The position numbers and the translations under genes are program-made. A stretch of 8,648 nucleotides of DNA from a virus (taxonomy: Duplodnaviria > Heunggongvirae > Uroviricota > Caudoviricetes). Each line of letters opens with the position of its first letter. The first letter of the stretch is position 1. The notes beneath the pieces were generated by a model that was not told where the DNA came from, made no database searches, and was given only the letters and a program-made list of their open reading frames with translations. This document shows, piece by piece, positions 6,487 to 6,942 of the stretch. The stretch is taken from the IMG/VR virus record IMGVR_UViG_2671180417_000011; one strand, given 5' to 3'.

Positions 6487-6725
6487 AAATTCACTCTCCT
6501 TACGGGGTTTGTAGTTGAGGAGTTCTCCACGGGTGAGGTGGAGATCGTGCGCCGGACACGGGTGAGTTCCTGCACTCTCAGTTTACTGAACAGACATTAC
6601 CCTGAAAGCCAAGGTACTACACGAAAGCGCGAGGCGAAGACTCTTTCCCATAGAAGGATTGTCGTTAGATTTCTTCGACCGTGCGCTTCCGGTTGTGAAT
6701 AACAACATTGCTGTGTGTAACCCTT

Positions 6726-6769
6726 GGCGGATATCGGTTTGCCGATTGCTGATGTCCGCCCTTTTTAAA
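6726..6769 (+). terminator. Candidate intrinsic terminator on plus strand within a long non-coding region
   Basis: 10-bp stem ggcggatatc (6726-6735) / gatgtccgcc (6751-6760) with one G-U pair, then ctttttaaa (6761-6769). An alternative inner hairpin atcgg/ccgat also exists. No U-tract in the minus orientation. Confidence 0.45.
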
Positions 6770-6858
6770 GTGAATTTTGTGATGCGGTGAATGCGGCTCA
6801 GCGCACGCGGAACAGTTAAACCGACAGGATGTCACGGAAAGTCATCGTCCCCTGACCC

Positions 6859-6885
6859 GGCGTTAATTGTTAACTGGTTAACGCC
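6859..6885. promoter_or_regulatory. 8-bp inverted repeat GGCGTTAA-N11-TTAACGCC upstream of the 6943 gene (candidate regulator binding site)
   Basis: ggcgttaa (6859-6866) / ttaacgcc (6878-6885); spacer contains gttaac; followed by a second short hairpin cctgg/ccagg (6887-6901). Lies about 60-80 bp upstream of the 6943 start. Confidence 0.3.
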
Positions 6886-6942
6886 ACCTGGAGGCACCAG
6901 GCACCGCATCAACAAAGTTCATTTGTGAAAATGGAGATAATT

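Follow-up and report, generated by a model that had tools for sequence, protein, structure and literature searches.

A probable RNA cassette upstream of kilR in the early-left operon of an Escherichia coli lambdoid prophage

The stretch of DNA analyzed here, IMG/VR record IMGVR_UViG_2671180417_000011 (8,648 nucleotides [nt]; referred to below, at its full length, as the window), covers the immunity and early-left (PL) region of an Escherichia coli lambdoid prophage, and its + strand runs in the direction of PL transcription. We examined the gap at 6487-6942, which separates a minus-strand gene of PHROG family 2605 from kilR, the gene of an FtsZ inhibitor. This gap is probably a three-part RNA cassette of the PL operon, carried on the + strand and homologous to both the kilS-kilR region of the Rac prophage and the dicF-dicB region of the Qin prophage. 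Its elements (Table 1) include a long-range RNA helix, a predicted KilS-class small RNA (sRNA) ending at an intrinsic terminator, and a structured 5' leader of kilR with a divergent STnc100-class fold. kilR itself has been associated with survival under oxidative stress and, on statistical grounds, with clinical outcome in O157 infection.

Homology of the gap to two K-12 spacers

The gap is homologous to two spacers of E. coli K-12, namely, sieB-kilR in Rac and ydfC-dicB in Qin. RefSeq annotates the noncoding RNA kilS (b4833, 98 nt) upstream of kilR in the former and dicF upstream of dicB in the latter. Since these K-12 gaps measure about 440 and 570 nt, respectively, the gap of the window is not exceptionally long for such a module, in contrast to a claim made earlier from the sequence alone. 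In BLAST searches of phages, window 6506-6923 matched phage Tritos around a feature annotated as "DicF antisense sRNA," and it also matched the region upstream of Kil in Rac-like phages. A four-way alignment including the window, K-12 Rac, and Qin then divided the gap as follows: the left 170 nt are common to Qin and are not Rac-like; the short sRNA body is common to Rac, while Qin is longer here by about 130 nt, among them the DicF seed; and the stretch of about 170 nt that begins at the U-tract of the terminator and reaches to the start codon is common to Rac and Qin.

A sensitive Rfam scan gave two abutting matches in the gap, one to DicF at 6712-6761 (29.2 bits; E = 0.0034; gathering threshold, 48) and one to STnc100 at 6763-6957 (27.8 bits; E = 0.0059; gathering threshold, 47). 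In the K-12 loci, DicF of Qin scored 76.7 bits and KilS of Rac scored 39.1 bits against the DicF model, and the leaders scored 34.4 (Qin) and 28.0 (Rac) bits against STnc100. Comparison of the two scores of the window with those of K-12 Rac thus indicates that the window behaves like Rac. A further match, to MIR7532 (2228-2321), was rejected as a chance match to a simple repeat within a coding region. For the sRNA, relatives were drawn from 120 viral-contig loci sharing a leader motif (individual loci bear L numbers below).

The predicted small RNA, its terminator, and the kilR leader

Window 6681-6767 aligns with nt 7 to 98 of K-12 KilS (b4833), with indels only in the top of the hairpin, and the predicted sRNA folds with -30.8 kcal/mol (z = -3.1). 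Its predicted seed is the same as that of K-12 KilS over its whole length, and 16 distinct variants with differing hairpins all retain the seed core, GCUGUGU(G/U), the seed being mostly unpaired in the folds. The terminator that follows was stable in RNAfold (-23.4 kcal/mol; z = -3.95), none of 200 shuffled sequences being as good. Reading of the sequence alone had proposed a candidate plus-strand terminator at this place, with arms at 6726-6735 and 6751-6760 followed by TTTTT, and RNAfold extends this stem to 13 bp. A consensus terminator scan missed it because the loop, at 9 nt, exceeds the limit of 8 nt set in that scan. All 13 hairpin variants taken from relatives show a GGCGG...CCGCC stem followed by U5, with the seed largely unpaired, and the terminator stem covaries across related phages. 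A free seed, a G+C stem, and a U-tail constitute the usual layout of an Hfq-dependent base-pairing sRNA. In K-12, KilS was detected by Northern blotting, is absent in an hfq deletion, accumulates in stationary phase, and has a transcription start site at its 5' end; its partner in RIL-seq (an RNA-RNA ligation and sequencing approach) is yncL (PMC8175672). We compared the sRNA, at whole length and as the seed only, with the translation-initiation regions of ftsZ, yncL, and kilR by using RNAduplex, and no pair could be separated from shuffled targets. As this included the known DicF-ftsZ pair, the comparison neither supports nor excludes any target.

Folding of 6500-6770 and of its Qin counterpart yielded in both cases a long-range helix, in which ACACGAAAGCGCGAGGCGAAG pairs with CUUCGACCGUGCGCUUCCGGUUGUG (local fold of 6615..6697, -30.2 kcal/mol; z = -2.7). 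In 17 distinct relatives, the 17 consensus pairs were 97% paired, compared to 27 to 41% when the partners were slid, and 4 of these pairs showed compensatory changes on both sides. The helix has many U-G wobbles, which would be A-C mismatches on the opposite strand, indicating that it belongs to + strand RNA. In Qin, the 190-nt DicF species is RNase III dependent, the 53-nt species is RNase E dependent, and an internal promoter was not detected (PMC10448788). A distance of 190 nt, measured from the 3' end of DicF, would place the 5' end in the homologous 3' arm, at about 2246-2251 in locus L003, which corresponds to about 6686-6691 in the window. This analogy makes 6615..6697 a putative stem for RNase III processing, by which the 5' end of the sRNA would be defined. 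The sRNA would thus begin at about 6686-6691 if processed as in Qin or at about 6675-6678 if, as in Rac, it is transcribed from a start of its own. At the site of the nearly invariant motif inside the helix insert, K-12 Rac has TGT-TAAATT, an extended -10 element, and the mapped 5' end of KilS follows 7 nt downstream.

The end of the terminator lies 177 nt upstream of the kilR ATG, and the leader occupies most of this distance. It folds with -66.3 kcal/mol (z = -4.2; none of 200 shuffles as good). RNAalifold, applied to 22 diverse aligned relatives, recovered the closing helix, the GGUGAAUGCGGCU hairpin, and a CCNGG/CCNGG hairpin. When the 8-bp inverted repeat was included as the fourth helix in the same 22 relatives, 16 of 28 pairs changed on both sides. 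Overall, 89.8% of cells were paired, compared to 77% after shuffling and 29 to 48% after sliding, and none of 500 shuffles matched what was observed. The arms of the inverted repeat change completely between lineages yet remain complementary, which marks the repeat as an RNA helix as opposed to a palindrome for protein binding. All four STnc100 core elements are found in the window, namely, the closing helix, the GGUGAAU-hairpin, the variable hairpin, and the CACCNGGAGGCACCNGGCACC hairpin. The hairpin motif CACCNGGAGGCACCNGGCAC is invariant and common to the canonical STnc100 copies, which score 52 to 132 bits. On the basis of the common core helices and of CACCNGGAGGCACCNGGCAC, we assign the leader to the STnc100 structural class as a divergent member. 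In the literature, STnc100 and PasD are prophage sRNAs whose function is at most hypothesized. For the leader of the window, RNA stability, Rho access, and control of kilR translation are possible roles.

Two side observations concern this fold. Locus L103 harbors, at 4349-5513 (and at 8357-8555), a 1.4-kb stretch that is poor in open reading frames (ORFs) and in which four to five STnc100 copies exceeding the Rfam threshold are arrayed in tandem, along with an isrI match; this suggests that the fold can serve as a repeated intercistronic element and not as a single sRNA gene. In the window, a 21-nt inverted repeat, 86% complementary, connects 6451-6471, at the coding start of the minus-strand gene, with 6767-6787, in the 5' arm of the leader closing helix; it may be a chance occurrence, or it could form in competition with the leader fold when PL RNA reads through.

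An N homologue and a nut site lie upstream in the same transcription unit, and the terminator precedes the delayed-early genes. Taken together, these elements suggest the following course of events. PL transcription, possibly aided by a weak local promoter, would cross the antisense gene and the left conserved block, and the RNA would form the long-range helix of about 22 bp. RNase III would then cut this helix and set the 5' end of the sRNA, as in Qin, or, alternatively, the weak promoter would fire. Polymerase not modified by N would halt at the terminator and release the KilS-class RNA of about 77 to 93 nt, which would be a trans-acting regulator of host mRNAs. After synthesis of N, polymerase modified at nutL would pass the terminator and transcribe the 165-nt leader, kilR, and the recombination genes. 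Two functions would hence fall to the terminator, yielding the sRNA and silencing the toxic kilR until N is available. Since no other strong terminator occurs on the + strand from 5521 to 6943, that is, between the N-like gene and kilR, it is well placed to keep KilR off without N, and this position, together with the N homologue and nutL, fits a PL-operon terminator. The sequence-only reading had offered an sRNA, a regulated divergent promoter region, and a PL-operon terminator overridden by the N-like protein as three alternatives; the first and the third of these apply jointly rather than exclusively, and the second found little support.

Several points weigh against the cassette and the course of events proposed for it. 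Both Rfam scores are under their gathering thresholds. The duplex between the seed and yncL (RNAduplex, -16.1 kcal/mol) is not significant, 16% of the shuffles being as good. Covariation in the long-range helix is modest, the 4 compensated pairs of 17 stemming mostly from the Rac lineage, and 13 of 500 shuffles reach the pair count. Placement of the RNase III-dependent 5' end within this helix was deduced only via the approximate 190-nt length. In addition, the extended -10 is weakened in the window (CGT-TAGATT versus TGT-TAAATT in Rac), and consensus scans detected no convincing promoter and no acceptable -35 element near the sRNA, the best + strand match being TTCCCA-15-TAGATT (8/12), with a poor spacing of 15 nt. 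The minus-strand gene lies within the presumed PL transcript, and convergent transcription may reduce the amount of PL RNA that reaches the cassette. The promoter scans being unconvincing on both strands, PL is the presumed origin of the transcripts. For the sRNA of the window, processing from the PL transcript is more likely than an independent start, the weak promoter being the alternative.

Table 1. Features of the gap upstream of kilR and of the surrounding early-left region, by window position
Feature	Position	Strand	Details
Left conserved block	6506..6612	+	Hairpin 6524-6544; direct repeat CACGGGTGAG; hairpin GCCGGA/TCCTGC 6551-6573; CAGTTTACTG 6579-6588; CCCTG..CAAGG 6600-6614
Long-range RNA helix	6615-6640 with 6672-6697	+	About 22 bp, small bulges; encloses variable insert
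Nearly invariant motif GTCGTTAGATTT	6661..6672	+	GTCGTTAAATTT in relatives; inside helix insert
Predicted KilS-class sRNA	6675..6767	+	About 77-93 nt; 3' end at U-tract
Predicted single-stranded seed ACAUUGCUGUGUGUA	6705..6719	+	DNA ACATTGCTGTGTGTA; identical over 15 nt to K-12 KilS
Intrinsic terminator	6726..6766	+	13-bp stem 6726-6738/6748-6760; 9-nt loop; U5 6762-6766
Structured 5' leader of kilR	6766..6931	+	Divergent STnc100-class fold, 165 nt; closed multi-helix
Leader P1	6781-6789 with 6902-6910 (core)		In window extended to 6766-6789 with 6902-6925 or beyond
Leader P2	6792-6809		
Leader P3	6859-6866 with 6878-6885		8-bp inverted repeat
Leader P4	6887-6891 with 6897-6901		
cI-like repressor	3800-4507		
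Operator-like palindrome GATAACTTAGGTTATC	5002-5017		5' of nutL-like site
nutL-like site	5066-5076 (boxA); 5086-5105 (boxB type)		boxA GCTCTTTAACA; boxB-type hairpin TCTCAAC/GTTGAGA; upstream of N-like gene
N-like antiterminator	5216-5521		PHROG 271, E = 8e-35
Three small genes			Between N-like gene and minus-strand gene
Minus-strand gene	6277-6486	-	69 aa; PHROG 2605 (unknown function); strong Shine-Dalgarno (SD) sequence AAGGAGAG
kilR	6943 (ATG), 7164 (stop)	+	73 aa; SD GGAG 6933-6936; PHROG 294, "Kil protein for bacterial septation inhibition," E = 8e-36
128-codon gene			3' of kilR

The left block and alternative readings

The left conserved block shares about 81 to 85% identity with the ydfC-dicF spacer of K-12 Qin and with 20 other loci, irrespective of the orientation of the left-hand gene. 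RNAalifold gave no covariation support for 6506-6612 (covariation term, +1.16; 3 of 25 pairs). The block contains two of the four features that the sequence-only reading had singled out, namely, a 7-bp hairpin (TCTCCAC, 6524-6530, pairing with GTGGAGA, 6538-6544) and an exact 10-bp direct repeat (6528-6537 and 6557-6566), the others being the terminator and the 8-bp inverted repeat, GGCGTTAA/TTAACGCC, of the leader. All four features are present in the window at the positions which that reading gave, but they fared differently when homologous loci were compared. The terminator and the inverted repeat exceed chance by far and are both conserved and covarying, whereas the hairpin and the direct repeat are without covariation. 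By simple arithmetic, about 0.09 direct repeats of 10 nt are expected by chance in 438 nt, so that this repeat is not compelling alone; both of its copies are kept in Qin-type relatives. The emphasis laid on the hairpin and the direct repeat was thus misplaced, and the long-range helix, the seed, and the homology to KilS, DicF, and STnc100 had been overlooked. The block may contain the promoter and 5' untranslated region of the minus-strand gene, or else it may be part of the precursor RNA.

Compared to its closest relatives, L001 and L024, the window harbors two substitutions in this part of the gap. The one at 6573 (TCCGGC to TCCTGC) weakens the + strand hairpin 6551-6573, and the one at 6612 (CCAGGG to CCAAGG) weakens a + strand hairpin while staying a G-U pair on the minus strand. 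The hairpin affected by the latter, CCCUGAAAGCCAAGG (6600-6614), had also been considered as a boxB/nut element. This was dropped since a proper nutL sits upstream of N and since Qin retains the hairpin, yet the annotated genes of its dicBF operon are ydfA, ydfB, and ydfC, without annotation of an N homologue.

In another reading, the region would serve mainly DNA-level control, with divergent promoters and operator-like repeats for the PHROG 2605 gene and kilR and with the repeats acting as protein-binding sites. The minus-strand gene, with its strong SD sequence, needs a promoter to its right, and this promoter must sit within or beyond the left block, the gene itself lying outside the RNA cassette. 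A weak leftward candidate, CTTTCA-17-TAAACT (6608..6580; 7/12), is indeed found in the block, which is conserved in loci that also bear a leftward gene. However, no well-spaced sigma-70-like site reaching 8/12 was found on either strand in 6450-6760, and in the consensus scans the promoter count was under the shuffle expectation. The conservation of the block in sequence without RNA covariation would fit DNA-level control, as would the own transcription start site reported for K-12 KilS (PMC8175672), but the block is kept in Qin, where ydfC is co-oriented and where experiments found no internal promoter (PMC10448788). Further to the right, the 8-bp inverted repeat covaries as an RNA helix, and the U-G wobbles of the long helix fit + strand RNA only. 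We therefore regard DNA-level control as an unlikely account of the region, while a weak leftward promoter for the minus-strand gene is possible.

The presence of the STnc100 core motifs and helices raises the question of whether 6763-6931 is an independent, trans-acting sRNA of the STnc100/PasD family that is merely upstream of kilR and not its cis leader. RNAs of this family were reported to be Hfq associated in enterohemorrhagic and enteropathogenic E. coli (EcOnc27 and PasD), and canonical STnc100 copies occur in several contexts and in tandem arrays, with no obvious tie to one gene. In the window, in contrast, the fold is not followed by a terminator, the SD sequence of kilR being located 8 nt past the extended closing helix, and we found no promoter from the sRNA terminator up to the fold. 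Folds of this kind stand at a constant spacing ahead of the start codons of kilR, dicB, and other small early genes, and the STnc100 score of the segment in Rfam is sub-threshold. An independent sRNA is thus quite unlikely. As no terminator or promoter separates the fold from kilR, the fold in the window is most simply a 5' leader and not a free sRNA.

We then considered whether the predicted sRNA could be a true DicF orthologue, which would repress ftsZ by antisense pairing and, together with KilR, would impose a double block on division. DicF is the best Rfam match of the sRNA and extends over the full model length, although its score is below the gathering threshold and far from the 76.7 bits of K-12 DicF. 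The GGCGG...CCGCC terminator, the downstream sequence, and the position just upstream of a gene for an FtsZ inhibitor are common to DicF, and the hybrid locus L035 has a DicF seed on a hairpin resembling that of the window. In the window, however, the DicF 5' seed UUUCUGGUGACGUUU is replaced by AUUGCUGUGUGUAACCCUU, and the DicF loop CAGUUUUACUCCGUG, which in RNAduplex pairs with the ftsZ ribosome-binding site, is absent, an unrelated loop being found instead. The seed-ftsZ duplex was no better than those with shuffled targets (93% of the shuffles as good). For the loop of the window, the duplex with ftsZ reached -17.9 kcal/mol, with 30% of the shuffles as good, in what is a weak test, since the known DicF-ftsZ pairing gave 32%. 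Judged by its score, seed, and loop, the sRNA of the window is very probably not a DicF orthologue. Balasubramanian et al. are said to have reported in 2016 that the DicF 5' seed pairs with xylR and pykA.

Lastly, although ORFs of 41 to 100 codons exist on both strands of the gap, it is hardly credible that one of them, such as ORF 6791-6928, ORF 6583-6708(-), or the TTG-initiated ORF 6400-6702, is a hidden small protein gene: the longest ATG-initiated ORF within the gap (6791-6928; 45 aa) has counterparts of 8 to more than 54 aa, with frame changes, in 40-odd homologous leaders, indels in the gap alignments are not multiples of 3, PHROG and Pfam gave zero matches in the gap (including the 41-aa ORF 6583-6708[-]), the ORFs are without a preceding SD sequence, and conservation tracks helices and not codons. 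The coding reading was rejected on these grounds, in agreement with the earlier view, reached from the sequence alone, that the gap holds no convincing ORF; no ORF in it is conserved.

Genomic context, distribution, and related systems

The PHROG 2605 gene is antisense to PL transcription and occupies the slot of sieB in Rac. It overlaps by 32 nt (6277-6308), in convergent orientation, with a + strand gene at 5949-6308 (PHROG 2982), and PL transcription must cross the PHROG 2605 gene antisense, as it crosses sieB in Rac. The chromosome of strain AST198 is 99.9% identical to the window over the 951 nt tested. RecE, Gam, Bet, and Exo are encoded further downstream in the 99.9%-identical genome, and RefSeq annotates kil at the position of kilR in NZ_AP043606. 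Far from the gap, a unit of about 60 nt, CAGACGGTCCCGGTATCTCCCGGGTTAACCCAATCGGCTTCAGGCTGCTGCGGTTGGTGT, is present twice (2829-2891 and 2920-2981; 91 nt apart) between a cII-like gene and a replication-protein gene, and a third, diverged copy lies inside the replication-protein gene (2057-2142). Iterons, an origin, and a partial gene duplication are possible readings of these copies.

The same cassette was found in 73 of 5,426 complete E. coli genomes, where none of the listed records has an annotated feature at this place. It was also found in at least two sequenced phages, PhiR5_2 (97.8% identity) and phiSTEC1589-Stx1c, and these phages are inducible. A pattern scan of contigs (596 Gb) with GCTGTGTGTAN{3,9}GGCGG proved too unspecific, since its 120 matches were almost all chance matches in unrelated phyla, only one being from E. 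coli. About 1% of complete E. coli genomes, as well as inducible Stx and other lambdoid phages, thus carry a gap of 440 nt with a KilS/DicF-class sRNA and a kilR leader, both of which annotation pipelines miss because the Rfam scores are sub-threshold.

Among the relatives, hairpins, seeds, and downstream genes recombine, and hybrids are present. The DicF-class seed UUUCUGGUGACGUUU always precedes DicB (about 27 of 27 loci), and the KilS-class seed (C)AUUGCUGUGUGUAGUC mostly precedes KilR. The window has a KilS seed on its own hairpin variant. In L247 (1486-1546; Shigella phage 75/02 Stx), the terminator hairpin of the window is combined with a third seed, AUCAAUAUCCUCUUU (the AUAUCCUCUU type), a DicF-like upstream context, the same leader, and Kil. 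Seven loci (L109, L076, L053, L020, L005, L022, and L007) show the modules in reversed order, with the STnc100-class fold followed immediately by a KilS-type seed, UUUAUGCUGUGUGUAGUC, and its own terminator; in L109, for example, this arrangement is found on the minus strand around the match at 980-1011. These loci indicate that the two RNA modules recombine in both orders.

The cassette is thus an unannotated, slightly divergent member of known families (a predicted KilS/DicF-class sRNA, an STnc100-class fold, and an early terminator presumably overridden by N), that is, an ordinary lambdoid module and not a new system. As such, it will not surprise specialists of phages or sRNAs, the interesting question being the role of the STnc100-class fold. 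Its value lies in showing DicF, KilS, and STnc100/PasD, so far treated separately, as parts of one mosaic cassette located before genes for FtsZ inhibitors, with RNase III probably acting at a conserved helix. One could go further and propose a family of recombining seed-terminator-leader cassettes in lambdoid PL operons, in which different seeds (DicF, KilS, and the third, AUAUCCUCUU type) are carried on one scaffold and the STnc100-class fold is a cis-acting gate that licenses toxic early genes (kilR and dicB) only in read-through, for example, as a block to Rho or RNases or as a translational gate. We attach a low probability to this proposal; if true, a prophage RNA family that is widespread but unexplained, and that occurs beside stx2 as well, would acquire a function.

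The arrangement resembles, first, the tL terminators of lambda, which likewise are intrinsic terminators in an early operon downstream of N and nutL; read-through depends there on N and nutL-modified polymerase, while read-through by the N protein of the window is only predicted. As with tL and StxS, a short terminated RNA would be a by-product able to regulate, and the downstream genes would need antitermination. StxS (PMC7547250) differs in that it comes from the late PR' terminator and not from the PL operon. Second, the leader has in common with STnc100 (RF02076)/PasD the closing helix, the GGUGAAUGCGGCU...GCGCACGCGG hairpin, the variable hairpin, and the invariant CACCNGGAGGCACCNGGCAC hairpin, and both are prophage borne. 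It differs by its score, which is below a gathering threshold that canonical copies exceed, and by being continuous with kilR, canonical copies being located elsewhere, e.g., downstream of stx2B or in tandem arrays.

Third, the DicF/dicBF operon of Qin (RF00039) has the same order of elements, with a repressor, small genes, a long untranslated spacer, an sRNA with an intrinsic terminator, a structured leader, and a gene for an FtsZ inhibitor. The spacers are homologous, including the long helix that would hold the RNase III-dependent 5' end of the 190-nt DicF, and so are the terminator base and the downstream sequence. In contrast to Qin, about 130 nt including the DicF seed are missing from the window, which has another seed and another loop, the downstream gene is kilR instead of dicB, and the Rfam score is 29 instead of 77 bits. 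Finally, the terminator of the window departs from that of Rac KilS (b4833; Bar et al. 2021, PMC8175672) in its upper stem and loop, which are shorter (a 13-bp stem and 9-nt loop versus a longer, interrupted hairpin), the extended -10 is weaker than in Rac, and the upstream 170 nt are Qin-like. Both RNAs nevertheless map to the 5' region of kilR, with an antisense-oriented gene on their upstream side, and both have the identical 15-nt seed, the common 5' segment GUGCGCYUCCGGUUGU, and a GGCGG...CCGCC stem ending in U5, which is followed by the same leader.

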